Assembly (NCBI GenBank): GCA_016199585.1
Contig: JACQGM010000105.1
Coordinates: 1 to 62,992, forward strand
Direction: 5' to 3'
DNA: 62,992 bases
Source of the DNA: Armatimonadota bacterium
GTDB lineage: Bacteria; Armatimonadota; JAAZEB01
The position numbers and the translations under genes were made by a program. This document shows, in pieces, positions 2,175-62,992 of this stretch. The stretch's first letter is position 1, and the number at the start of each line of letters is the position of its first letter. The notes under the pieces are model-generated. The model searched no databases. It was not told where the DNA came from and saw only the letters and a list, made by a program, of their open reading frames with translations.

Positions 2175-2187
2175 TGCCCGCCGGTGT

Positions 2188-2218
2188 CGGGGCGCCCCGC
2201 CGACCGCGGGGCGCCCCG
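2188..2218 (+). terminator. GC-rich hairpin after the pseudopilin-like gene
   Basis: The self-complementary 12-mer CGGGGCGCCCCG occurs twice (2188-2199 and 2207-2218) around a 7-nt loop. There is no clear U-tract. Confidence 0.4.
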
Positions 2219-2294
2219 TGAGCGTTCGCTAAGTGGCCGCCGGTGCCTCGTCCGTCAACTCGGGCCATCGCCCGAACGGGGAGGAACAACGCCC

Positions 2295-3809
2295 ATGGTT
2301 CAGGAGATCACACGACGGCGCTTTCTGCTGGCATCGGCCGGCGCAGGCGCTGGATTGCTGATGGGACCGGCCGCATGGTTGGGTGCGGCTTCGCCTGAGG
2401 AGAGACACAGATTGTCAAGGCCCAATATCCTGCTGATCAACTGCGATGACCTCGGCTACGGAGACATCGGGTGCTACGGCTCCAAGGTCCACGGCACGCC
2501 GGCGATCGACCGGATGGCTGCCGAAGGCGTGCGCTTCACCGACTTCTACATGGCGGCGGCATGCTGCTCGCCATCCCGCGCCGCCATGATGACCGGCTGT
2601 CGTCCCCAGCGCATCGGCCTGCAGGCTGGCCACAAGGCGGGCGTGCTCGAGCCCTGCGATCCGATCGGACTGAGCCCCGACGAGATCACGGTAGCCGACT
2701 TGCTGAAGCGCCAGGGCTACGCCACGAAGATCATCGGCAAGTGGCACTGCGGCGACCAGCCCCCCTTCCTGCCCACGCGGCACGGCTTCGACAGCTACTA
2801 CGGCCTCCCCTACAGCAACGACATGCGCATGACGCGCAACTTCCCCGACACGCCCCCGCTGCCGCTCCTGCGCGACGAGGAGGTGGTCGAGGCGGAGCCC
2901 AACCAGGCATCCCTCACCGAGCGGTATACCGAAGAGGCGGTGCGCTTCCTCCGCCAGCATCGTGAGGGGCCCTTCTTGCTCTACTTCGCCCACATGTACG
3001 TCCACGGGCCGATCCAGGTGCCGCAGCGATTCCTAAGCCGATCCCGAGACGAGCACTACGGGGCCGCCGTGGAGCACATCGACTTCGTCGCCGCCGCCCT
3101 CTTCCACGAGCTGAAACGACTCGGTCTCGACGAGAGTACCCTCGTGGTGTTCACCTCGGACAACGGCGCCAACCGGAAGCGCGCCGACTTCGGGAGCAAC
3201 CTGCCGCTGCTCGGCTACAAGGGATCATCGTGGGAAGGCGGCCATCGCGTGCCGTGCATCATGCGCTGGCCGGGGAGGATCCCGGCGGGAAGCGTCTGCC
3301 CGGAAGTCGCCACGGCGATGGACTTTCTGCCCACCTTCACGCGTCTCGCCGGCGGGGAGCCGCCCACCGACCGGATTATTGACGGCAAGGATATCCGGTC
3401 ACTGATGACCGGGGAGCCGGGCGCGAAGTCTCCGTACGACGCCCATTTCTACTACCACGCCAACACGCTGTGTGCGATCCGCATGGGAGACTGGAAGCTC
3501 CATCTCACCGCGCCCAAGGTGCCCAATGGTCCCGGCGGCGAGAAGCGGGATCTGCACCCGGACATGCTCTTCAACCTGCGGGAGGACATTGGCGAGACCA
3601 CTGACGCGGCGCAGAAGCACCCCGACGTGGTGGCCCGCCTGAAGGCGCGCGCCGACATCTGCCGCCGGGACCTGGGCGACCAGGCGACCGGCGCGCGCGG
3701 CGAGAACCGGCGACCGGCCGGCCGGGTGGATGATCCGAAGCCGCTCACGAGATATGATCCCGCCCAGCCGTACATGCACGACCCCTTCCTGGCGGCGGCA
3801 TACGACTGA
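2295..3809 (+). CDS. sulfatase (Cys-type, Tat-exported)
   Basis: ORF 2184-3809 with start at ATG 2295 (GGGGAGGAA upstream). It has a twin-arginine signal 'TRRRFLLASAGAGAG', the sulfatase N-terminus 'NILLINCDDLGYGD' and the formylglycine motif 'CCSPSRAAMMTG'. Confidence 0.9.
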   Translation: MVQEITRRRFLLASAGAGAGLLMGPAAWLGAASPEERHRLSRPNILLINCDDLGYGDIGCYGSKVHGTPAIDRMAAEGVRFTDFYMAAACCSPSRAAMMTGCRPQRIGLQAGHKAGVLEPCDPIGLSPDEITVADLLKRQGYATKIIGKWHCGDQPPFLPTRHGFDSYYGLPYSNDMRMTRNFPDTPPLPLLRDEEVVEAEPNQASLTERYTEEAVRFLRQHREGPFLLYFAHMYVHGPIQVPQRFLSRSRDEHYGAAVEHIDFVAAALFHELKRLGLDESTLVVFTSDNGANRKRADFGSNLPLLGYKGSSWEGGHRVPCIMRWPGRIPAGSVCPEVATAMDFLPTFTRLAGGEPPTDRIIDGKDIRSLMTGEPGAKSPYDAHFYYHANTLCAIRMGDWKLHLTAPKVPNGPGGEKRDLHPDMLFNLREDIGETTDAAQKHPDVVARLKARADICRRDLGDQATGARGENRRPAGRVDDPKPLTRYDPAQPYMHDPFLAAAYD

Positions 3810-3834: not shown

Positions 3835-4383
3835 ATGCGACGAACGGCGCTCTGCGCCGGTCTGGCAATCCTGACCTGGGCGTGCCTCGGAATCCCCGGG
3901 GAGGCCCAGATTCCTACACGGGAGGCACGCGTGAGAGATTCCAGCCTGAATCCGGAGTACGTCACCTGGCGGTCTGCGCCCCTGCAACTGGAACCGATCG
4001 AGCCGCCGAAGGAGAGAGAGGCGCCGCTCCTCGCCTGCTACCGCAAGGAGTTCACGCTGCCGGCCGCCGCACGCCAGGCGGCGTTGACGGTGTACCTGCA
4101 GACGAGCCGCACCACTGCCCCTTACTGGATCACTGTGAATGGGCAGGCCCTCTCCGAGCCCCGTGAGGGCGCCCTACAGCTCGCGGGCCTCACCAACCTG
4201 GACGCAACGAAGGTGCTGCGCGCAGGTCGCAACGTCATCACCGTCAAACGCGCATGCACCCTCCCCGCTCAGGCATGGCTCACGGTGGAGGGCATCGTCT
4301 TCTGCGAGGATGGGAGCACCCGCCGCGGCGGCGGCGGATTACGGCGCTGGCGTCGCATTGACAAGAATCCGTCCGCCTGCTAG
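3835..4383 (+). CDS. truncated 5' paralog of the giant proteins at 8039 and 11706 (signal peptide plus beta-sandwich domain only); possibly a gene remnant
   Basis: GAGAGGAGAG RBS and ATG 3835. 'GIPGEAQIPT..SLNPEYVTWRSAPLQL..CYRKEFTLPAAARQAALTVY..VNGQAL..LTNLD..EGIVFCEDGST' aligns residue for residue with the N-termini of the large paralogs. Similarity ends near 4320, and an unrelated Arg/Gly tail then runs to TAG 4381-4383. Confidence 0.6.
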   Translation: MRRTALCAGLAILTWACLGIPGEAQIPTREARVRDSSLNPEYVTWRSAPLQLEPIEPPKEREAPLLACYRKEFTLPAAARQAALTVYLQTSRTTAPYWITVNGQALSEPREGALQLAGLTNLDATKVLRAGRNVITVKRACTLPAQAWLTVEGIVFCEDGSTRRGGGGLRRWRRIDKNPSAC

Positions 4384-4386
4384 TAT
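4358..4386 (+). promoter_or_regulatory. sigma70-like promoter for the GNAT gene
   Basis: TTGACA (4358-4363), 17-nt spacer, TAGTAT (4381-4386). It overlaps the last codons of the truncated paralog. Confidence 0.5.
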
Positions 4387-5302: not shown

Positions 5303-6130
5303 ATGACGGAAGCCTCGCCCGACCCGGCGCGGATGCGCCGGGAGTTCCAAACCGCTGTCGCTGCCCTGGGCTTCGTTGACATCAACGCCTGGGTAGGGAG
5401 CCATCCCGACCCCCTGCGGCCGGCGGAGACCTCTCTCCCCGCGCTGGCCGCGGCCGCAGCCGATGCGGGGATCCGCGAGATGGTGGTCTCGCACACGGAG
5501 TGCGTCTTCGCGGATCCCTGTGAGGGCAACGCTCTCCTCCTGGACGCCGTGGAGGCGAGCGGCGGAGCCGGCATCTCTCTCTGCGCGGGCATCTGCCTGC
5601 TCCCGGAAGGTGAGCTGCCGGGATCGGCGGGGACTTACCTGGATGCGTGCCTTGCCAGGGGCGCTCGCCTGGTCCGGCTCTTCCCCAAGAGCCACCGCTT
5701 CCCTTTGGCCGAATGGTGCTGCGGCGGCGTGCTGGCGGCGCTGGAGGAGCGCCGGCTCCCCCTGATGGTGGGGCACGTGGAGACCTCCTGGTCGGAGCTG
5801 CACGCCCTCTGCGAGCGCCACCCGGACCTACCCGTGATCATTGACGGCGCGGAACAGAAGCTCTTCTATCACAACCGCCCCGTGGAGGCGCTGCTCCGCG
5901 CGCACCCGAACCTCTACGTGGAGTCGCACAACCTGGTACACTTCCTCGGCCTGGACCACCTGGCGCGCCGGGTGGGCGCCGGGCGGTTCCTGTTCGGGTC
6001 CGGGATGCCGCAGAGGGATCCCGCGGCCGCGCTCGCGTGCGTGGCCCTCGCGGATCTGCCGGATGCCGACCGCGCGGCGATCGCTCGCGGCAATTGGCGC
6101 AGGTTGATGGAGGAGGTGCGCACGCCATGA
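5303..6130 (+). CDS. amidohydrolase-family (TIM-barrel metal-dependent hydrolase) protein
   Basis: ORF 5213-6130 with start at ATG 5303 after GGAAGGAAAGAG. 'FVDINAWVG' and the C-terminal 'FLFGSGMPQRDP' resemble the amidohydrolase_2 family. Confidence 0.6.
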   Translation: MTEASPDPARMRREFQTAVAALGFVDINAWVGSHPDPLRPAETSLPALAAAAADAGIREMVVSHTECVFADPCEGNALLLDAVEASGGAGISLCAGICLLPEGELPGSAGTYLDACLARGARLVRLFPKSHRFPLAEWCCGGVLAALEERRLPLMVGHVETSWSELHALCERHPDLPVIIDGAEQKLFYHNRPVEALLRAHPNLYVESHNLVHFLGLDHLARRVGAGRFLFGSGMPQRDPAAALACVALADLPDADRAAIARGNWRRLMEEVRTP

Positions 6131-15380: not shown

Positions 15381-16700
15381 ATGGATTACAGCCTGCTGAA
15401 CGAGATACGGGAAGCGCTGGCCGCCGAAGGGGCGGCGGGCGTCCTGGCTGAGCGCCTGCAGGCCCTGCGCGCCGCCGACCTCGCCGACGTGATGGAGCGC
15501 CTCAACCAGGAGGAGCGCCGGTCCCTCTTCCTGCTCCTCCCCGACGAGGAGGCGGGCGCGGTGCTGCAGGAGCTGGACGAGGCGGCGGCAGCCGAAGTGC
15601 TGGAGAACCTCCCCGCCGAACGCGCCTCGCGCCTGCTGGGCGGTATCCCCAGCGACGACGCCGCCGACCTGCTGCAAGACCTCCCCGACCAGGCCGCCGA
15701 CGCCCTCCTCGCCGGGATGGCGCGCGACGATGCCCGGGCCGTCCGCCAGCTCATGGAGTACCCCGAGACCACGGCCGGCGGGCGCATGACCACCGAGTTC
15801 GCCACCGTCTCCGAGGATGCCACGGTCGCGCAGGTGATCGCCGGCCTGCGCGACCAACCGCCTGCGGCGGAGACCGGCTACTACCTCTACGTGTGTGACT
15901 CCCTCGAGCGACTGAAGGGTGTGGTCTCCCTGCGCGACCTGATCGTGGCCGCCCCCGAGGCGCGCATCGGCGAGATCATGGCCCGCGAAGTCGTCAGTGT
16001 GCCGGCCGATGCCGACCAGGAAGAGGCGGCCGACCTGGTGGCCCGGTATGACCTGCTGGCCCTGCCCGTGGTGGATGCCGACCAGCGCCTGGTGGGCGTC
16101 ATCACGGTAGACGACGTGCTGGAGGTGCTGGAGGAGGAGGCCACCGAAGACATCCTGGGCCTGGCGCCGGGGTCGGAGCCCTCGCCGGCGCGATTGGCTC
16201 CGTCGTTGCGGGCGCGCTTGTCGCGCGCGGCGGCCGTGCTCCTTGCCGGGCTGGCCGCCGCGGGGCTGGTGAGCCCGGGGCAACCAGGGCTTTCGGTGCG
16301 GGCGCCGTTCCTCCTCTTCCTGCCGCTCGTATTGGCGGTCAGCGAAGTGGTCACCGCACAGGTGATGGCGGGCGTGGCGGGTGCCTTCCGCCGCGAGCTG
16401 CCCGCTGCGGCGTTGGCGCGCGCCGCCGGGCGCGAGTTGGTCGTCACGGGGATGCTCGCCGGGGGCGCCGGGCTGGCGGTCGCGGCGCTCCTCGGCCGCT
16501 GGCACGGCCTGGGTGCGGTGGGCGCCGATCTTGGGGCGGCGGTGTTCCTCGTCGCCCTCATCGCGGCCGTGATCGGCGTCGCGGCTCCCATCCTGTCGCA
16601 CCTGCTCCGTCACGACCCTTCGGCCGCTCCCGTCTCCTTGGTCGCGGCGCTCTCCGCCGTGGTCGGCGTGGCGACGTACCTGTGGGTGGTGGGGCGTTAG
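15381..16700 (+). CDS. mgtE: MgtE-family divalent cation transporter homolog (divergent membrane domain)
   Basis: It has an MgtE N-domain ('LADVMERLNQEERRSLFLLLPDEEAGAVLQEL', 'DDAADLLQDLP'), a tandem CBS region ('MTTEFATVSEDATV', 'LLALPVVDADQRLVGVITVDDVLEVLEEEATED') and a C-terminal multi-TM domain. Confidence 0.8.
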   Translation: MDYSLLNEIREALAAEGAAGVLAERLQALRAADLADVMERLNQEERRSLFLLLPDEEAGAVLQELDEAAAAEVLENLPAERASRLLGGIPSDDAADLLQDLPDQAADALLAGMARDDARAVRQLMEYPETTAGGRMTTEFATVSEDATVAQVIAGLRDQPPAAETGYYLYVCDSLERLKGVVSLRDLIVAAPEARIGEIMAREVVSVPADADQEEAADLVARYDLLALPVVDADQRLVGVITVDDVLEVLEEEATEDILGLAPGSEPSPARLAPSLRARLSRAAAVLLAGLAAAGLVSPGQPGLSVRAPFLLFLPLVLAVSEVVTAQVMAGVAGAFRRELPAAALARAAGRELVVTGMLAGGAGLAVAALLGRWHGLGAVGADLGAAVFLVALIAAVIGVAAPILSHLLRHDPSAAPVSLVAALSAVVGVATYLWVVGR

Positions 16701-21537: not shown

Positions 21538-21584
21538 CGCGGGGCTTGGGACATCGGCCAACTCTCGACGCGGGGCCGGAAACC

Positions 21585-21593
21585 TGATATAAT
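21585..21593 (+). promoter_or_regulatory. extended -10 promoter element
   Basis: TGATATAAT (TG-n-TATAAT) lies in the arsM-metallophosphoesterase intergenic region. The -35 (TCGACG) is only weak. Confidence 0.4.
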
Positions 21594-37544: not shown

Positions 37545-37573
37545 ATTGTACTGAAGGCGTTGAGGGATGTCAA
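37545..37573 (-). promoter_or_regulatory. consensus-like sigma70 promoter for the minus-strand operon
   Basis: On the minus strand: TTGACA (37573-37568), 17-nt spacer, TACAAT (37550-37545). Confidence 0.55.
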
Positions 37574-37604: not shown

Positions 37605-37633
37605 TTGACAGGGAGGGATCGTGGTGCTATACT
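37605..37633 (+). promoter_or_regulatory. consensus-like sigma70 promoter for the heparinase-like gene array
   Basis: TTGACA (37605-37610), 17-nt spacer, TATACT (37628-37633). It lies about 180 nt upstream of ATG 37816. Confidence 0.55.
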
Positions 37634-37815: not shown

Positions 37816-40800
37816 ATGGTATCATTCGCCTTGGTTCTCTTGCTGGGCGCGGCTTCCGCCGGTTCCGCTCAGGCGGAGCGCAACGGGAACCTGATCCCCA
37901 ACGGGGGATTCGAGAAGGACGGAGACCGTGACGGTCTCCCCGATGGCTGGGCGTTCGCCGATGTCGGCGAGGGGGTTCGGCCTGAAGCGCGGCCGGCCGC
38001 TCCCGCACGGGCAGGGCGCTCCAGCCTCTGCGTGGTCACCGGCGGGCAGCAGGTCACGCTGACATCCCCCGGCTTCGTGCTGAAGCCGGGCGCCACCTAC
38101 CAGGTGAGCGCGTGGCTGCGGATGGAGGGCCGGTTCCCACAGGACATGGTGAGCGTGCGCGTCGCCACGGACGCCGGGAACCGCTCCTTCGAGTTCCACC
38201 TGGCGCGGCCATGGCGCAAGTGCGCCGCCACGTTCGTCGCTCCGGAGGGTGCGCGCTCGGCAACGCTCCAGTTCCGCGGGCTGGGCGGCCTGGCCGACCG
38301 GACCTACATGGACGACGTGGCAGTGAGGGAAGCGGCCGCGTCGGTGGCGGAGCGGAAGCCGCCCGTCCACCGGACGGACCTCGCCCGGTTCGAGTTCCCG
38401 CGGACGGGGTCGTTCGTGGAGTATGCCACGGCGCAGATCGAAGAGATGAAGCGCGAGATGGCGGGCCGCGACAGCCGCGAGCACCCGTGGGTGAGGCAGG
38501 CCGAGCCACTGCTCCAGGAGCAGTTCCACTTCTTCAAGGAGGGATACACGACCGACGGCCGGTGGCTGCCGGTCTTCAACGTCGGCATGAACTGCCCCAA
38601 AGACGCGGCCCGCCTGAACCCGGTGGTCCATGCCGATGGCAGCCATGAGATGAAGTGCCCCAAGTGCGAGGGGGTCTACCGCACCGAGGCGAACCTTCAG
38701 TGCGCCCGGGCGGTCTACAACCAGAACCTGTTGAGGGCCGGGGCGGCGTTGGGCCGGGCCTATGCGCTCACCGGGGATGAACGCTACGCCCGGCGGGTCA
38801 AGGATATCATGCTCGGGTTGGCGGAACGCTATCCGACCTGGGGGCGAGGGCCTCACCTCTCCTTCACCACGTTGAACGAGGCTGAGAACATGGTCTCCTT
38901 CTCGGCAGCCTTCGAGCAGATCCGAGATAGCGTCATTCTCTCGGTCGAGGAGCGCCGGAAGATCGAGGAGGGCCTCCTGCGGCCGGTTGGGGAGTTCATC
39001 CGCAGGGGGAGCATCTCGGATCGGATGAACAACCGGGCGGCGATCTACAGCAAGGCGGTGATGGCCATCGGCCTCGCCCTTCGCGACAAGGCACTGGTGG
39101 ACCACGCCCTCAACGACCCGGATGCCGGGCTTCACGCGCTGTCGGCGGGGATGTTCGACGCAGATGGCCTCTCGTTCGAGGGGTTCGGATACCAGTCCTA
39201 CGGCCTCTCGGGGCTCTCTCCCACGGCGGAGATGGCCTACCGCATCGGCCTCAACGTCTACCGCGACCCCGCCTACCGGAAGGTCTTCCTCCCGCAGTTG
39301 CAGATCCTGCTCCCCGGCGAGGAGAGCCGCGGGTGGGTGCGCCAGTACGACCTGGCGTGCCGGCGCTTCGCCGAAGCGGGACAGCCCCTGGAGTTCCCCT
39401 TCGATGACGAGGGTCGGCTCACGGTGGTTCCCGCTTCCTCTTACAACTTCGGAAAGTTCGGCTACGGGATCCTCCGTTCCGGAGAAGGCCTGGACCAGGT
39501 CTATCTGACGATGGAGTACGGCGTCGAGACGATGTTCATGGGCCACGCGCCCGCGCCGAAGTTCGCCACGCTCCTCTACGCCAACCGCCGGCTGCTGACG
39601 CCACGAGGCGCCACCTCTTCGTACGGAGACCCGCTCTGCGGCGGGTGGTCGCGCCGCACGCTGGCGCACAACGCCCTCACGGTGGACGACCGCGACCAGT
39701 GGGGGCGCACGCCCGGCCGGTTCGTCGCCTTCGAGGCGGCCCCCCGGGTGAAGGTGGCGCGCGCGGCAGACGACGAGACCTACGGTGGCGTCACGCTGGA
39801 CCGGACGCTCTTCCTGGCGGACGGCTACGTGGTGGACCTCTCCGCCGCCCTCGCCGCTGCCGGAGATCACCGCTTCGATCTTTGCTATCGCTTCTACGGC
39901 GACCTCGCCTGCGGCCTCCCCTTCCAGCCTCGCGGCGGCCCCCTGGGCGCCGGGCACGGCTACCAGTACCTCACCGACGCGCGGAGCGCGCGCACCGCCG
40001 CAGACTGGTCGGCCGATTGGCGCCAGGCGGAGGACTCGGCGCTGCGGCTCTCGGTGGTAGGCGGGCCGGAGACGGAAGTGATCGCCTGCGCGTCACCGGA
40101 CAACCGGAGCGCCGAAGAGAAGGTGGATGCCATCGTCGCCCGCCGGTGGGGCGGGGATACGGTGTTCGCCTCCGTGTGGGAGACCTACCGCGACCGGCCG
40201 TCGGTCGTCAGCACCCGCCGTCTGCCGGCGGCGGGAGGGGATGCCGAGGGCGTGGGCGTAGAAGTCGTAAGGCAGGGACGCCCGGGCGCGGAGTGCTTTC
40301 TTGCCGCGTACGCGGCGGGGGAGCGTCAGTACGGCGACATTGAGCTGGACGGGAAGATTGCGGCGGGACGCTGGGTCAACGCGGAGGCGGCGCCCGACTA
40401 TGCCTACCTGGTGAAGGGCGTGCTGCTGCGGCGCGGCGGCCGCTCGCTGGAGGCGAGTGCCCCCGCCACGCTCTATGTCGAGCAGATCGCTCCCGACCGG
40501 CTGCGGGTGCAGACCGGCAGCGAGAGCGCCGGCAAGCTGGCCCTCACGGGGAGATTGGCCGCCGGGGCCGGCGTGACGCGCGCCGGCGAGAAGGTGGCGA
40601 CGAAGGCGGATCGAGGTCGGACTCTCACCTTCACGGCCGCTGCCGATGCCGCCTACGAGGTGACGGGCGTTGCCGACTGGCGGCGGATCCGGCTGGCGCG
40701 CGAAGGCCGGGCGCAGGAGACGGCAGCGGCGGAGATGGTGCCCGTGGCGGCGACCGCGCCGCCCGAACCCACGATCCAGGCGCCCCTGGCGCCCGACGGC

Positions 40801-46628: not shown

Positions 46629-49025
46629 ATGGCTTGCCACACAGGGGCTTGCGCCGGCATGATCGCCCTGTTGGGCGCCACCGCCTCGCTGGCGGCGCCA
46701 CCGGCGCCCTCGTCGCCGGGCTCCGCCGGCGGCTGGCTCAACGTCCAGGAGCTGGGCGCCTCCGGCTCTGAGTCCGAGACTACGGCGTCCACCACGGCCG
46801 GCTCGAAGGAGATCACGGTGGCGGATGTGGGCGACTTCCGGGTGGGCCAGGGAGTGATGGTCTCCCGAGCGTTCACCCGCTACACGGGCGCCACGCTCTG
46901 GGGACCCGACCGCGGCCGGCCCAGCCCCCTGTCCGGCGACGTGATGGAGGTGCGTGGCTACGACGGCAGCAGCGGGAGCTGGTGCGTCTACCTCCTCGAG
47001 GTGAACCCGGCCGCGCCCGCCAGCTTCCGCTGGACCGACGACATCGGGCGCACCTGGCACGGACCCGTACCGATCACCCACGAGTGGCAACCGCTGAGCG
47101 GGGGCATCGAGGTGCGGCTCAACCGGCGCGAGTGGGGCGGCCCTTGCTGCATCAGCTTCAGCGGGCGCGACCAGTTGGTGAGCACCATCGAGAAGATTGA
47201 AGGGAACGTGCTCACCCTCAAGGACGCGGCCAATCGCTCCGCGCTGGATGCCGTGGTGCGCCACTGCGATGACGCCGCGCTTCAGGCAGCCGTGGACGAG
47301 GCAATCCGCGAGAAGCGCAACGTCTACTTCCCGCCCGGTCGCTATCGGCTGGCGAGCGGCATCGTCGTGAAGGATGCCACCGGCATCACTCTCCAGGGGA
47401 GCAGCGGGGTGGAAACCGTGCTGGATGTCCAGGACGGCGTCGGGCGAGCCAGTGAGCAATCCACCGGCGTCGCCGCCGCGTGCTTCACGCTCCTCGGCGG
47501 CACTGAGGTAACACTGCGCAACTTTCGCATGGTGGGCCACTCGGGGTTCGCCAATCGCGACCAGTGCGGGAGCGTGCGAGTCACTCCCCGAGTCTGGGGT
47601 TTCTTTCTGAAAGGGTGCAACGCGGTGACGATCCGGGGCACCGAGCGCGTGCTGGTGGAGAACTGCCATGCCACCCGCATGGCGAGCGAGTGTTTCTACT
47701 CAGGTGGGCCCGCACGGTGGAAGGGTAACGAGCCGAAGCAGTACACCAAGGCGATCACCTACCTGCGCTGCTCGGTGGTGGACTCCGGGCGCAACGCCTT
47801 CAACAACAACGACATGGCGGAGAACACCAGTGTCCTCTACTGCCGCATCCAGGATGTGGGCGGGTGTACCTGGGAAGGGGCGTCCCGCTTTGTGCGCTTC
47901 ATCGGCAACTACGTGTGCAACGCCGGCCCGGTGGCGATGGGCAACATCGGCAGCCGCGACGCGACCCTGGAGGAGCTGGGTTCCGGGCAGCACATCGTCG
48001 CCGACAACGTCTTCGAGAGCGGCGTCGCCTACGACCACTGCGCCATCCGATCGGCTCAGGGCGCCAACCAGGTGGTCGTCCGCAACAACCTCTTCGTGAA
48101 CTTCGGCTCCCATGCCATCGAGATGTCCGGAATGGGAGGAGAGCGCTGGCTTCCCGCCGGCAGAGCCTCCATCGTCGGCAACATCATAGACATGACGGAG
48201 ATCGGTGACAAGCCGATCGCCCGCACCGCCATCCAGATCAGCGCGAGCGACGTGATGGTCTGCGACAACCAGATCTACGTCCGCGGCACGCCCGCCCCGC
48301 TGGTCACGGCCATCCGCATCACGGAGCCCGCTGTGAACCTCAGCATCCACGACAACCTGATCCGCAACTGCGGCATCGGCCTGGTGACCGGGCGCGGACA
48401 GGCGAGCATCAGCCAGGTGGTGGATCCCGCCACCTTCCTCCTGACCGGAAGGGACGTGCCCCTGGTGCAGCGCCAGTCGCACCGCTACCGGGGTTTCCAC
48501 CTCGCCTGGCTGAGTGGAAAGGCATCCAAGACGGTCTCCGTCATCGAATCCTTCGACCCAGAGAGTCTCCGGTTCAGGCTGAGGGAGCCGCACGAGATGG
48601 AAACGGGGGACCGGTTCGAGGTCTTCCCGCCCTCCGCCAACTGGAGCATCCACCATAACACGATCACCGATTGCCTGCAGCCGGTGGTGCTGGACTCCTA
48701 TGGGAGCCCCACATCATCCTTCGCGGACAACACCCTCACGCGCGGCGGCGCCACGGGCGTGAAGGCGGCAGTGGCGATACGCGGCGCCTTCCGGGTGACG
48801 GGCAACCACCTCTTCGGCTTCGACGAGCCGGGGAGCATCGGGTTGTCACTCTTCCCGAACGCGGTGGGGCAGGTGTGCCGCAGCGTCTACCAGAACAATG
48901 TGATCGAGGAGTGCTCGCTTGCTACGGCGGAGAGCGTGAAGGGGCTATGGAAGGCCTCGCTGGTCAGCGGCAACCGCTTTGAGGAATGTGGGAGTGCCCC
49001 CGACGCGGGCGGCCTGCCAAGATGA
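46629..49025 (+). CDS. right-handed parallel beta-helix repeat protein (pectate-lyase-fold)
   Basis: AAAGGAGGA RBS and signal peptide 'MIALLGATASLAAPPA'. 'NVYFPPGRYRLASGIVVKDATGITLQG' is followed by repeated 'N..I.(N/D)' coils ('VVRNNLFVNFGSHAIEM', 'IHDNLIRNCGIGL', 'IHHNTITDC'). Confidence 0.7.
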   Translation: MACHTGACAGMIALLGATASLAAPPAPSSPGSAGGWLNVQELGASGSESETTASTTAGSKEITVADVGDFRVGQGVMVSRAFTRYTGATLWGPDRGRPSPLSGDVMEVRGYDGSSGSWCVYLLEVNPAAPASFRWTDDIGRTWHGPVPITHEWQPLSGGIEVRLNRREWGGPCCISFSGRDQLVSTIEKIEGNVLTLKDAANRSALDAVVRHCDDAALQAAVDEAIREKRNVYFPPGRYRLASGIVVKDATGITLQGSSGVETVLDVQDGVGRASEQSTGVAAACFTLLGGTEVTLRNFRMVGHSGFANRDQCGSVRVTPRVWGFFLKGCNAVTIRGTERVLVENCHATRMASECFYSGGPARWKGNEPKQYTKAITYLRCSVVDSGRNAFNNNDMAENTSVLYCRIQDVGGCTWEGASRFVRFIGNYVCNAGPVAMGNIGSRDATLEELGSGQHIVADNVFESGVAYDHCAIRSAQGANQVVVRNNLFVNFGSHAIEMSGMGGERWLPAGRASIVGNIIDMTEIGDKPIARTAIQISASDVMVCDNQIYVRGTPAPLVTAIRITEPAVNLSIHDNLIRNCGIGLVTGRGQASISQVVDPATFLLTGRDVPLVQRQSHRYRGFHLAWLSGKASKTVSVIESFDPESLRFRLREPHEMETGDRFEVFPPSANWSIHHNTITDCLQPVVLDSYGSPTSSFADNTLTRGGATGVKAAVAIRGAFRVTGNHLFGFDEPGSIGLSLFPNAVGQVCRSVYQNNVIEECSLATAESVKGLWKASLVSGNRFEECGSAPDAGGLPR

Positions 49026-59630: not shown

Positions 59631-59735
59631 TCTCCCCGGCCGTGGCGCCCGACGTGCCGGGTGGCCCGGCCCAGCGACCCTCCGGAGGGGCCGGTCCGTT
59701 CCCGGCGCTCGTCCGGCGAGAAAGGAAGGAGAGAG

Positions 59736-61163
59736 ATGCCGAACCTGTTCCGCACCGCAACCATTCTGGCGACGATGCCGCTCGCCACCCTGGCCGCCGC
59801 CCAACAGAGCCAACCCGGGCCGCTCCGCGTCGGCGTCGCCAGAGCCGACATCTCGCCCGAGGGACCGGCCTGGCTGTGCGGCTTCGGCGGCCGCGACGGC
59901 AACAAGCCCTCCGAGGGCACCGCCCAGGATCTGATGGCCTACTGCGTGCTCTTCGATAATGGACAGACCCGCGTCGCCTTCGTCACCCTCGACCTGGTCT
60001 GGACCAGCTACGACCACCTGCTCCGGCTGCGCGCCGCCGCGGAGGCCGCCGGCGTTCCCCAACAGCACCTCATGGTGAACGTCTCGCACACCCACTTCGG
60101 CCCGGCCCTTTCGGATGGACAGCCCGGGCAGCGGGCCACCGAGTACGACGCGCTCCTGGTGGAGCGCACCCGGGCGCTCTTCGCCGCCGCCGTGGCCGAC
60201 CTGAAGCCGGCCCTGCTGGACTACACCGTCGGCGCCTGCGACATGGGCTTCAACCGCCGCTCCTGCTACGGGCCGGGCGGGCGCAAGCCGAACGACCCGG
60301 ATGTGCCGGTGCTGCGGGTGCTCGCTCCCGATGGGAAGGTGCGCGCCGTCCTCTTCGGCTACGCCTGTCACCCGACGACGGCCGGCGGCAACATGCTCTA
60401 CCTGGTCGGTTCCGATTACCCCGGCTACGCGCGAGAGTGGGTGGCGGCCGCCTACCCCGGCGCCGAGGCGATCTTCCTGCAGGGGTGCGGCGGCGACATC
60501 AAGCCGGGGAACGCCGGCAAGCCGAACTCCGTGTGGGAAACGGGTCTGCTCAACCCGAACCAGGCGAAGCAGGCGATGGGCTACGAGCTGGGCCGGGCGG
60601 TGATCAAGGCCGTCGCCGGGCACGGCACGGGCGCCCCCAAGTCGCCCCCCCCGGTGCCCGCCGAGCCGCCCGCCGGCAAGACCCGGGCGTGGCTGGAGAA
60701 GGAGCGGGGCTTCCCGGTGCCGCCGCCGCCGGTGCCCGCCGACCGGCCGGCGGACCCCGAGCAGGCGCTGGCGACTCCGGTGCCCCTTGGCGGCATGGTG
60801 GAGACGATCTCGCTGCCGTCCAAAGCGGATCCGGAGCGGAGAGTGTACATGCTCTGGCACACGGGCGCCTGGCGCATCGGCGACGTCTACTTCTTCGGCA
60901 GCGAGGGGGAGCTCCTCTCCGCCATCGGACGGCGCATCAAGCGCGATCTGCCCGACGTGCGCGTCTGGACCGACGGCTACACGCACTGGGGCGGCGGCTA
61001 CATCCCCGAGGCTGCCACCTACCCGGAAGGCGGCTACGAGGTGGACAACACCGCCTTCGCGCCGCAGACGGAGGATATCCTGGTCGGCAACGCCCATCGC
61101 TACGTCAAGGAGCTGCAGGCCAACCCGATCCACACGGCGCCGATCGCGCGCCTGCACCCGTGA
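59736..61163 (+). CDS. ceramidase N-terminal-domain-like secreted hydrolase C3 (divergent paralog with a Pro-rich insert)
   Basis: ORF 59661-61163, with ATG 59736 after AAAGGAAGGAGAGAG. Signal peptide 'LFRTATILATMPLATLAAAQQ'. Motifs: 'GPLRVGVARADISPEGPAWLCGFG' and 'MVNVSHTHFGP'. Confidence 0.65.
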   Translation: MPNLFRTATILATMPLATLAAAQQSQPGPLRVGVARADISPEGPAWLCGFGGRDGNKPSEGTAQDLMAYCVLFDNGQTRVAFVTLDLVWTSYDHLLRLRAAAEAAGVPQQHLMVNVSHTHFGPALSDGQPGQRATEYDALLVERTRALFAAAVADLKPALLDYTVGACDMGFNRRSCYGPGGRKPNDPDVPVLRVLAPDGKVRAVLFGYACHPTTAGGNMLYLVGSDYPGYAREWVAAAYPGAEAIFLQGCGGDIKPGNAGKPNSVWETGLLNPNQAKQAMGYELGRAVIKAVAGHGTGAPKSPPPVPAEPPAGKTRAWLEKERGFPVPPPPVPADRPADPEQALATPVPLGGMVETISLPSKADPERRVYMLWHTGAWRIGDVYFFGSEGELLSAIGRRIKRDLPDVRVWTDGYTHWGGGYIPEAATYPEGGYEVDNTAFAPQTEDILVGNAHRYVKELQANPIHTAPIARLHP

Positions 61164-61322
61164 GGGGGCGCGGTGGCGCGGAGAGGGAGCACGGGCAAGG
61201 AGAGTGACGATGGCTCGACTGACCGTGCCTCCCGGTCGCTTCCCCGCGCCGCTGCCCCTGCTCTTACCCGGTAGAACACCTGTCGCCTCGAACCCGTTCT
61301 CCAGGCATGCCGCGCTGTCATG

Positions 61323-61351
61323 TTGACAGCGCGCGGCGCCGGGGGTATAAT
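61323..61351 (+). promoter_or_regulatory. perfect consensus sigma70 promoter
   Basis: TTGACA (61323-61328), exactly 17 nt, TATAAT (61346-61351). No convincing protein gene follows for about 600 nt. Confidence 0.65.
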
Positions 61352-61357
61352 GACGGT

Positions 61358-61958
61358 GCGAGTAACGACCGCTCCTCGGTCAGCGGGTGTTCCGCGCCAC
61401 ACGCAGGCTGCCGCCCGCCGCTTCGAACGAAGCCGGCTGACAGGCAGACCAGGCACTCCCGGACGAAGGGTCTGCTCAAAGTGGCTGAGGCCCAGGAGCT
61501 TCTGACGGTATGTGGCGCCAGAGTTCGGACGGGTGGGGAACGTGGGCCGCGACGCAGACGTGCGGGTGCGCGCACGGCGTCGAGTGAAGCCTGTTCCCCC
61601 GCTGGTAAGGGGCGTCTCCAACGGTGCCCTTTCATCCATCCGACCTGGCGCCCGGAGGAACGTATGGACGCTGGCAAACAGGAGCCTCCGAGTAAGGGAG
61701 GCGGCCAGAACCGGCCGTGGCAGAAGCGGTAGCGGCGAGTAGTCCCCCCGCGTGGCCTTCCCCCCTCGCTTCTTCCACGCCAACGGTGTGAAGAACAGCG
61801 AGGGGCGCAGGGAGGCATCCCCACTTCCCATCGCGCTCGGGCCGTCCCGGACGCGCTTCCTGCACCCCTCCAGCCAGGAGTTCTCGGCACGTGCCGACCC
61901 GCGCGCACGTGCTCACGGCGCGGGCCGCCGCCCCGGCGCGCCCGGCGAAGGAGATGGT
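61358..61958 (+). promoter_or_regulatory. long structured non-coding leader or unclassified RNA upstream of the CorA-like gene
   Basis: There is no plausible long ORF; the ORFs of both strands here are Arg/Gly/Pro-rich shadows. Many local helices are visible, for example GCAGACC..GGTCTGC, GGGGAAC..GTTCCCC and CCCCTCGCT..AGCGAGGGG. Confidence 0.45.
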
Positions 61959-62912
61959 ATGAAGGCTGGCTTCGAGCTGGAGCATGGCAGACTGGTCGCG
62001 AGTAATGATCCAGAGGCAACCGTTCTCGTCTATGTCAGTCCCGACGAGGATGAGCGCCGCCAGGTCGTTAAGTCGGAGGAGATGGACGCGTTCGACATCG
62101 ATTCCGCCCTCGACCCGGACGAGGTCTCCCGGGCCGAGCTGACATCCGATCGGCTCTCACTCATCTGGAAGCGGCCCAACAGCACCTCCTGCGACGAGGA
62201 GCTACAGCTCGACGTGTCGTCGCTCGGTCTCTTCCTGCGCCAGGACCGGCTGCTGGTCATCCTCAATGACGGGCCGATCCCCTTCTCGGCGAGGGAGTTC
62301 CAGGGCGTCGAGTCCGCTCCCGACGTCCTCCTGCGGTTCCTGCTCCACACCGTTCGCCAGTACCTCAGCCACCTGAAGGTGATCAAGCAGCTCAGCCGCG
62401 ACCTGGAGTCGAAGGTCAGCGCCTCGATGGAGAACCGCTACCTCTTGCAGATGTTCGCCCTCAGCGAGAGCCTGGTCTACTGCCTCAATGCCATCGAGGC
62501 GAACGGCGCCGCCCTCGTGAAGCTGCGCGGCCTGGCCGACCGGATCGGCCTGCTGCGGCAGCACACCGAAGCCCTGGACGACCTCATCCTGGAGAACCAG
62601 CAGTGCGCCCGCCAGGCGCGCATCTACACCGACGTGCTGGCCGGCCTGATGGATGCCCGCGGAACGATCGTCAACAACAACATGAACGTGCTGCTGAAGA
62701 ACCTCACCCTCATCAATATCATCTTTCTCCCGCTCAACCTTATCGCCAGCATCGGCGGCATGTCGGAATACAGCATGATGACGCGGGGCATCCACTGGCT
62801 CGTCTCCTACGCCGCGCTCTCGCTCGGGATGGTGGTGCTCGGCTGGGCCACCTGGTGGATCCTGGTCCGGGCACTCGACGGCGACGCGCGGCGGAAGCGC
62901 GCCGGGGTCTGA
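61959..62912 (+). CDS. CorA-family divalent metal ion transporter homolog (GMS variant of the GMN motif)
   Basis: ORF 61752-62912, with ATG 61959 five nt after GAAGGAG. It has a soluble N-domain and two C-terminal TM helices, with 'FLPLNLIASIGGMSEY' where CorA has 'YGMNF'. Confidence 0.7.
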   Translation: MKAGFELEHGRLVASNDPEATVLVYVSPDEDERRQVVKSEEMDAFDIDSALDPDEVSRAELTSDRLSLIWKRPNSTSCDEELQLDVSSLGLFLRQDRLLVILNDGPIPFSAREFQGVESAPDVLLRFLLHTVRQYLSHLKVIKQLSRDLESKVSASMENRYLLQMFALSESLVYCLNAIEANGAALVKLRGLADRIGLLRQHTEALDDLILENQQCARQARIYTDVLAGLMDARGTIVNNNMNVLLKNLTLINIIFLPLNLIASIGGMSEYSMMTRGIHWLVSYAALSLGMVVLGWATWWILVRALDGDARRKRAGV

Positions 62913-62992
62913 CGGGCCGGGCGGCGGGGGGCCGCAGCGTCGGGCGGTCAGAGCCTTTTCATTACTGCCGCACGGTGCGTCCCGGGGGGCAG

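Follow-up and report, generated by a model that had tools for sequence, protein, structure and literature searches.

A divergent M-box riboswitch candidate with a long, terminator-less leader upstream of a CorA-family gene in an Armatimonadota bacterium

The leader that separates a consensus promoter from a CorA-family transporter gene in an Armatimonadota contig most probably belongs, as a new and divergent member, to a riboswitch class that is already known, the M-box class, and does not represent a new class. From the score against the family model and the position of the match, it is very likely that an M-box aptamer regulates the CorA-family gene. That the gene is controlled by an M-box riboswitch with a non-classical, terminator-less expression platform is also likely on the sequence evidence, with somewhat less assurance. 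A specific read-out through an upstream open reading frame (uORF) and the termination factor Rho, which is based on folding models, is put forward tentatively. The unusual point of the locus is the 415 nt of extra leader without a classical terminator; otherwise the arrangement is mostly ordinary.

The window, which denotes the whole stretch of 62,992 nt that was analysed, has a GC content of approximately 68%. Its last 1.8 kb consists of the end of a gene for a protein of 500 aa (59661–61163, with a weak ceramidase-like match), a gap of 795 nt, and the gene for a protein of 317 aa at 61959–62912. The features discussed below are as follows.

61311–61333, no strand assigned: perfect palindrome CGCGCTGTCA-tgt-TGACAGCGCG, 10 + 10 nt, 100% complementary, overlapping the −35 hexamer
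61323–61351, forward strand: sigma-70-type promoter, −35 TTGACA at 61323–61328, 17-nt spacer, −10 TATAAT at 61346–61351
61368–61544, forward strand: predicted divergent M-box (Mg2+) aptamer, Rfam RF00380, 42.9 bits
61535–61601, forward strand: hairpin H1 of the minimum-energy folds, outer stem GGGGAAC at 61537–61543 with GUUCCCC at 61594–61600
61590–61660, forward strand: predicted switching region, which pairs with the 3′ strand of the aptamer and ends at the ribosome-binding site (RBS) of the uORF
61654–61732, forward strand: candidate uORF, GGAGG at 61654–61658, 5-nt spacer, ATG at 61664, 22 codons, stop at 61730–61732
61752–61824, forward strand: long stable hairpin, core arms 61756–61770 and 61797–61811, no U-tract after it, folding z-score −3.43
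61798–61935, forward strand: C-rich, G-poor tract, C/G 1.46–1.95 in 78-nt windows, candidate Rho-loading (rut) region
61948–62912, forward strand: AAGGAG RBS at 61948–61953 and CorA-family gene at 61959–62912, 317 aa, PF01544

The promoter had been described as the best of the window, and this description is correct: the sequence at 61323–61351 matches the TTGACA-N17-TATAAT consensus at 12 of 12 positions, the exact consensus occurs once in the whole 63-kb window, and a promoter scan of 60000–62992 gave this site as the sole promoter-like one. When up to two mismatches are allowed, 7 sites are found in the window, where 0.15 would be expected, which suggests that the host organism works with consensus-like sigma-70 promoters. 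The six additional sites, with 1–2 mismatches, lie at 45–73, 4358–4386, 21565–21593, 37545–37573 (reverse strand), 37605–37633, and 48183–48211 (reverse strand); those at 37545 (reverse strand) and 37605 (forward strand) form a divergent pair upstream of a lyase gene at 37816. From the distance to the −10 hexamer, transcription at our locus is predicted to start near 61358. The palindrome that overlaps the −35 hexamer occurs once in the window, where perfect inverted repeats of its size are 2–3 times commoner than in random sequence. It may be an operator for a DNA-binding regulator, in which case protein-mediated control would act on top of the riboswitch.

The stretch of approximately 600 nt between the promoter and the CorA-family start at 61959 had been taken to be non-coding, and both the base composition and the domain search bear this out. 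The real genes of the window have a third-position GC content (GC3) of 0.89–0.92 and a second-position GC content (GC2) of 0.38–0.53. In the leader, coding composition is absent: the GC3 of every frame is at most 0.82, and the gene-like GC2/GC3 pattern is seen in none of the frames. The long leader ORFs gave zero matches in a Pfam search, and a protein-coding leader was ruled out by the GC3 values together with the Pfam result. No tRNA or tmRNA was found in the sequence using ARAGORN. The start at 61959 is itself sound, since homologues align from residue 1, and its ATG follows AAGGAG with a 5-nt spacer. The original prediction had called it the next credible start after the promoter, which is not strictly correct, because the ATG of the candidate uORF at 61664, which has a strong RBS, comes earlier.

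The match of 61368–61544 to RF00380 covers model positions 1–169 of 169 with a score of 42.9 bits. The curated gathering score, an operational cut-off that corresponds to no biological feature, is 44 bits and hence 1.1 bits higher. This difference is the reason for the absence of the M-box from a default Rfam gathering scan, which gave zero matches in the whole window. The original prediction had proposed a metal-sensing riboswitch of a class that it could not name, and had listed the M-box first among the families to be searched with cmscan; in that search, run with an E-value threshold, RF00380 was found at 42.9 bits, so that the proposal of a riboswitch is supported and its class can be named. 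The E-value of the match is 8.3e-8 in a 1-kb search and 5.2e-6 in a search of both strands of the whole window with all 4227 families. The second-best Rfam match in the window, that of a GC-rich hairpin to a microRNA model, has an E-value of 0.067, and RF00380 is thus four orders of magnitude ahead of any other family.

When the sequence is threaded on the RF00380 structure, all helices are present, and 40 of the 46 pairs are canonical. The outer helix (P1) is formed by a 5′ strand at 61372–61400 and a 3′ strand at 61508–61540, which enclose the inner helices at 61407–61485 and 61487–61502. The identity to the consensus is 88 of 169 positions (52%). Among the most conserved positions of the family, 36 of 60 are identical (60%), and among the unpaired ones of these the number is 22 of 40. 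The conserved blocks C-A-G at 61450–61452, CG...AAG at 61460–61468, and AA at 61478–61479 are retained; the GUGAGGCU block of the M-box (61385–61390) is largely altered. Because 24 of the 60 conserved positions are changed and 6 of the 46 pairs are non-canonical, the binding of the ligand could be weakened or changed.

The placement of M-boxes before corA, mgtE, or mgtA is textbook knowledge. The present aptamer starts approximately 10 nt past the predicted transcription start, on the same strand as the PF01544 CorA-family gene. In the literature, M-boxes are found "almost always" upstream of corA, mgtE, or mgtA, and the Mg2+-transport genes behind them comprise corA, mgtE, mgtA, and nrmT (PMC4072509). 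The position in the 5′ leader and on the same strand as a gene of a Mg2+-transport family agrees with this rule, where the downstream protein is of the GMS and not of the GMN type. The match statistics and the placement are mutually independent, and a divergent true M-box is therefore by far the best reading, with membership of the class being assigned from the model score and the context. The segment 61368–61544 would presumably bind Mg2+, and the direction of regulation is presumed in the same way.

The aptamer accounts for the first 180 nt or so of the region that had been proposed as a riboswitch over its whole length of approximately 600 nt; the other 415 nt or so have no Rfam match and are an expression platform or a long 5′ UTR. 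A second riboswitch at 61545–61958 was looked for and rejected, with no candidate at Rfam E ≤ 10, and on the forward strand of the leader the same threshold gave nothing beyond the M-box except the microRNA-like hairpin. The nested helices that had been named in the region are all present where they were placed. Two of them belong to the M-box aptamer, GCTTC-GAAC-GAAGC being its helix P3; GGGGAAC...GTTCCCC corresponds to hairpin H1 (61535–61601), and CCCCTCGCT...AGCGAGGGG forms the core of the long hairpin (61752–61824). Their abundance, however, is mostly a chance outcome at 68% GC. The whole leader of 618 nt folds no better than its dinucleotide shuffles (z-score of −0.29), and of its four sub-segments only 61741–61830 clearly exceeds the shuffles, with a z-score of −3.43 and 0 of 200 shuffles as stable; the other segments have z-scores of −1.43, +0.29, and +1.11. 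No further copies of the hairpin at 61752–61824 were found in the window.

In a classical M-box platform, a GC-rich hairpin followed by a U-run stands directly after the aptamer. Such an arrangement is not seen here: the scan for intrinsic terminators (a hairpin and then a U-run) on the forward strand of 60000–62992 gave none, and what follows the hairpins past the aptamer is rich in C and not in U. Because of the absence of an intrinsic terminator, we infer that the read-out differs from the classical terminator/antiterminator read-out of Bacillus. The 5′ arm of H1 reuses the G-run in the 3′ strand of P1 (61535–61540), and H1 and P1 are mutually exclusive because this run is shared. In addition, 61594–61600 and 61633–61652 are able to pair with the aptamer 3′ strand at 61512–61543 (within 61508–61544), around the hairpin H2 at 61607–61632. 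The computed binding energy between the aptamer 3′ strand and 61590–61660 is −22.3 kcal/mol, a value that is reached by only 0.35% of the 1151 control windows taken from this sequence. Such an excess of complementarity to the aptamer 3′ strand is, according to the folding calculations, the signature of a riboswitch switching helix.

The switching strand stops one nucleotide short of the GGAGG at 61654–61658, the putative RBS of the uORF, whose predicted product is MDAGKQEPPSKGGGQNRPWQKR. The initiation region of the uORF resembles those of real genes of the window, e.g., that of the gene at 46629. For such an ORF the chance expectation is approximately 0.045 per GGAGG site, and the leader contains 3 GGAGG sites, so the candidate could have arisen by chance with a probability of roughly 0.1–0.15; its translation is presumed from the sequence. 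In the partition-function folds, the probability that GGAGG is unpaired is 0.45 when the aptamer is enforced, as a proxy for high Mg2+, and 0.80 when P1, the closing helix, is blocked in its 5′ strand, as a proxy for low Mg2+. When a shorter context is folded, GGAGG pairs with UCUCC at 61615–61619. The thermodynamic shift in the accessibility of the RBS is thus modest and varies with the length of the sequence folded. A pairing of the 5′ arm of the 61752–61824 hairpin with the end of the uORF, which are complementary at 12 of 13 positions, was also considered and does not reach significance (P = 0.165). The C/G ratio of the tract at 61798–61935 lies around the 95th to 99th percentiles of the whole window, which are 1.68 and 2.11, respectively, and the tract may function as a rut site.

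On the basis of these features, the following mechanism can be proposed. Transcription would begin near 61358 from the consensus sigma-70 promoter, and 61368–61544 would fold as an M-box aptamer. At high cytoplasmic Mg2+, the aptamer would be compacted and its outer helix would lock the strand 61508–61540; at low Mg2+, this strand would instead pair with 61594–61600 and 61633–61652. The read-out would be the accessibility of the RBS of the uORF (61654–61732), which is located directly 3′ of the switching strand. At high Mg2+, the RBS would be masked, and the untranslated leader would be terminated prematurely, probably by Rho, in 61798–61935. At low Mg2+, the RBS would be free, the uORF would be translated, and RNA polymerase would reach the transporter gene. 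The participation of Rho is presumed, and this uORF/Rho read-out as a whole is a possibility of less than even probability, built on modelled folds.

The main alternative to the uORF/Rho read-out is a factor-independent attenuator, which appears unlikely. It supposes that the aptamer is an M-box and that a GC-rich hairpin without a U-tract, for which H1 (61535–61601), H2 (61607–61632), and the long hairpin at 61752–61824 are the candidates, acts as a non-canonical terminator or pause site, while the uORF is irrelevant. Non-canonical terminators or pause sites without a U-tract have reportedly been proposed for some high-GC bacteria. The mutual exclusion of H1 and P1 through their common G-run would suit such a device, the hairpin at 61752–61824 is the only element of the leader that is clearly more stable than its shuffles, and the uORF is statistically insecure. 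However, the scan shows no hairpin with a U-run on the forward strand, the sequence after H2 is CAUCCAUCC and that after the long hairpin is AUCCCCACUU, and H2 as a terminator would have the wrong polarity, as it forms together with H1, i.e., in the low-Mg2+ state.

The closest archetype is the M-box, or ykoK leader (RF00380), of Bacillus subtilis mgtE. The present leader resembles it in the full-length match to the multi-helix aptamer, in the location of this aptamer in the 5′ leader of a Mg2+-transporter-family gene, and in a downstream strand that competes with the closing helix of the aptamer. It differs from the archetype in a score just under the threshold with 24 of 60 highly conserved positions changed, in an aptamer that no intrinsic terminator follows, in the distance of 415 nt between aptamer and start codon, and in its GC-rich sequence (68%).

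In Mycobacterium tuberculosis, the M-box of pe20 has a translational platform with a uORF and Rho, with a distance of more than 200 nt from the termination sites to the ORF; at pe20/rv1535, a relay is made up of the aptamer end, which is G-rich and resembles a Shine-Dalgarno sequence, an anti-Shine-Dalgarno strand rich in pyrimidines, and the Shine-Dalgarno sequence of the uORF, and Rho terminates the untranslated leader (PMC12810186). The peptide Rv1805A of that system is described as mycobacteria-specific (PMC12810186). The present leader is similar to pe20/rv1535 in that a high-GC M-box without a canonical terminator is separated by more than 200 nt from the annotated ORF, that the aptamer is followed by a candidate uORF whose Shine-Dalgarno sequence is strong, that the leader contains C-rich stretches, and that a pyrimidine-rich strand can pair in two ways, either with the G-rich aptamer end or close to the initiation region of the uORF. 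The regulated gene is different: a CorA-family gene here and a pe/ppe-mgtC operon there. The likeness is one of layout and does not imply that the platforms are homologous.

In Salmonella, mgtA and corA have Mg2+-responsive leaders with the leader peptides mgtL and corL and Rho-dependent termination. The present locus shares with these leaders the long leader before a Mg2+ transporter gene, a short ORF with a Pro-Pro pair, and probable attenuation of the Rho type, whereas the RNAs themselves are different and unrelated. Of these, mgtA is also mentioned in PMC4072509.

Homologues of the transporter were collected from 80 loci obtained in genome scans and 80 loci obtained in metagenome scans, plus a search of 5.8 billion proteins. 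The nearest CorA homologues are 66–69% identical to the present protein, with 69% as the best value across the genomes, the metagenomes, and the 5.8-billion-protein set. Using our own covariance model (R1), which was built from the window and the Rfam consensus, no M-box was found at 166 loci of transporter homologues, among which the model had no positive control. Rfam gathering scans of the 40 closest homologue loci also gave no M-box, and nhmmer searches with the leader gave nothing in the 160 homologue loci or in the rest of the window. The closest homologue locus (L001) has only 397 nt upstream, which do not align with the leader, and a homologue from KSB1 with 69% identity is preceded by an intergenic region of 294 nt without an M-box. 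At L081, the nearest metagenome homologue (66–68% identity), approximately 980 nt upstream (1024–2000) are without coding composition, as is also the case at L083; the upstream region of L081 has no Rfam match and no similarity to the leader of the window. Because no M-box is found at the 166 loci and no homologue of the leader at the 160 loci searched with nhmmer, the recruitment of the M-box to the CorA-like gene seems to be specific to the source lineage. The exact protein was not found elsewhere on record. The sequence itself is present in three low-coverage groundwater DNA runs, as identical fragments with zero variants, and RNA sequencing runs containing it were not found.

Two structured RNAs that are unrelated to the leader were detected by Rfam at the comparison loci. 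A tmRNA gene is located at 2482–2870 (reverse strand) of L011 beside a CorA-like gene of Lentisphaerae, and an nhaA-I RNA is located at 5677–5733 (reverse strand) of L020 downstream of another homologue.

These comparative results bear on the reading in which the resemblance to the M-box is fortuitous or a decayed remnant, and the leader is a long 5′ UTR that may contain a different and undescribed sensor or be controlled only by a protein through the palindrome. This reading agrees with a score below the gathering threshold, with the change of 40% of the most conserved positions, with a leader that is as a whole not more structured than its shuffles, with the overlap of a perfect palindrome and the −35 hexamer, and with the absence of a homologous leader at the loci searched. 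An E-value of 5e-6 over the whole window, four orders ahead of other families, a match that covers the full model, and a location after the promoter and before a CorA-family gene, as is expected of an M-box, argue against it, and its probability is rated as low. A promoter that serves an independent small RNA, as the original prediction had alternatively supposed, or a small protein gene, with the CorA-like gene transcribed separately, would fit the 600 nt between promoter and start and the good RBS of the 22-codon ORF, but it is very improbable in view of the lack of a second promoter-like site or a terminator on the forward strand of 61352–61958, the absence of coding composition in any frame and of Pfam matches to the longer ORFs, and the cis-regulatory nature of the M-box.

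The product of the gene under the putative control of the M-box matches PF01544 with 80.3 bits (cut-off 27) and carries two transmembrane helices in its C-terminal part, and its residues 27–274 align to the CorA of M. jannaschii (4EV6/4CY4). The match to TIGR00383 is 69 bits, below the cut-off of 200.75, from which the protein is a member of the CorA family and not an equivalog. The GMN signature of CorA at the end of the first transmembrane helix is replaced: GGMSEY is found near 62760–62777 where 4EV6 has YGMNF, and the Ser of GMS aligns with the Asn of GMN in M. jannaschii CorA. The majority of the 120 best homologues, which belong to many phyla, have the form GMSE[YF]S, and in a tally of G[MVI]x, GMS was found in nearly all. 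A search of the literature gave no report of a CorA variant with GMS. Because GMS replaces GMN, the substrate of the protein is not certain. A precedent is given by NrmT, an Nramp-related protein, where an M-box was the clue to the transport of Mg2+ by a family in which it had not been expected (PMC4072509). By analogy, the present riboswitch suggests a tie of the GMS-type CorA branch to Mg2+, as a hint from one locus.

The main result is one of annotation, i.e., a riboswitch in a GC-rich, uncultured groundwater bacterium that is missed by the default Rfam thresholds by approximately 1 bit. The locus would also be a second, independent candidate for a terminator-less, long-leader M-box with a uORF and probable Rho dependence, a design for which the experimental proof is limited to M. 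tuberculosis (2026). The M-box before a GMS-type gene, as with NrmT (PMC4072509), offers a testable hint of a role of this branch in Mg2+ homeostasis. In its most far-reaching form, the interpretation would be that a divergent M-box outside Actinobacteria and Firmicutes gates an uncharacterised GMS-type CorA branch through uORF translation and Rho, or that a variant M-box senses another divalent cation; taken together, this form is doubtful. If the former were true, the riboswitch would be the first functional clue that the widespread GMS-type branch handles Mg2+. If the latter were true, the cation sensed would be matched to the altered selectivity motif, and such sensing is conceivable because 40% of the conserved core positions of the aptamer are changed.

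A second Mg2+-transporter-like gene is located at 15381–16700 on the forward strand of the window, and its product has MgtE_N and CBS domains and a weak match to the MgtE membrane domain (22 bits, under the cut-off). Its upstream region is only approximately 150 nt long and has no M-box match. Upstream of the ceramidase-like gene at 59661, a polysaccharide-degradation cluster extends over 37816–59630 on the forward strand, consisting of three paralogues of approximately 1180–1220 aa with alginate-lyase/heparinase II-III and CBM_4_9 domains, together with a 1304-aa FG-GAP protein, a pectate-lyase-like protein, two ceramidase-like proteins, and a sulfatase. At the other end of the window, a LacI-type regulator is encoded at 64–1269 and another sulfatase at 2184–3809.
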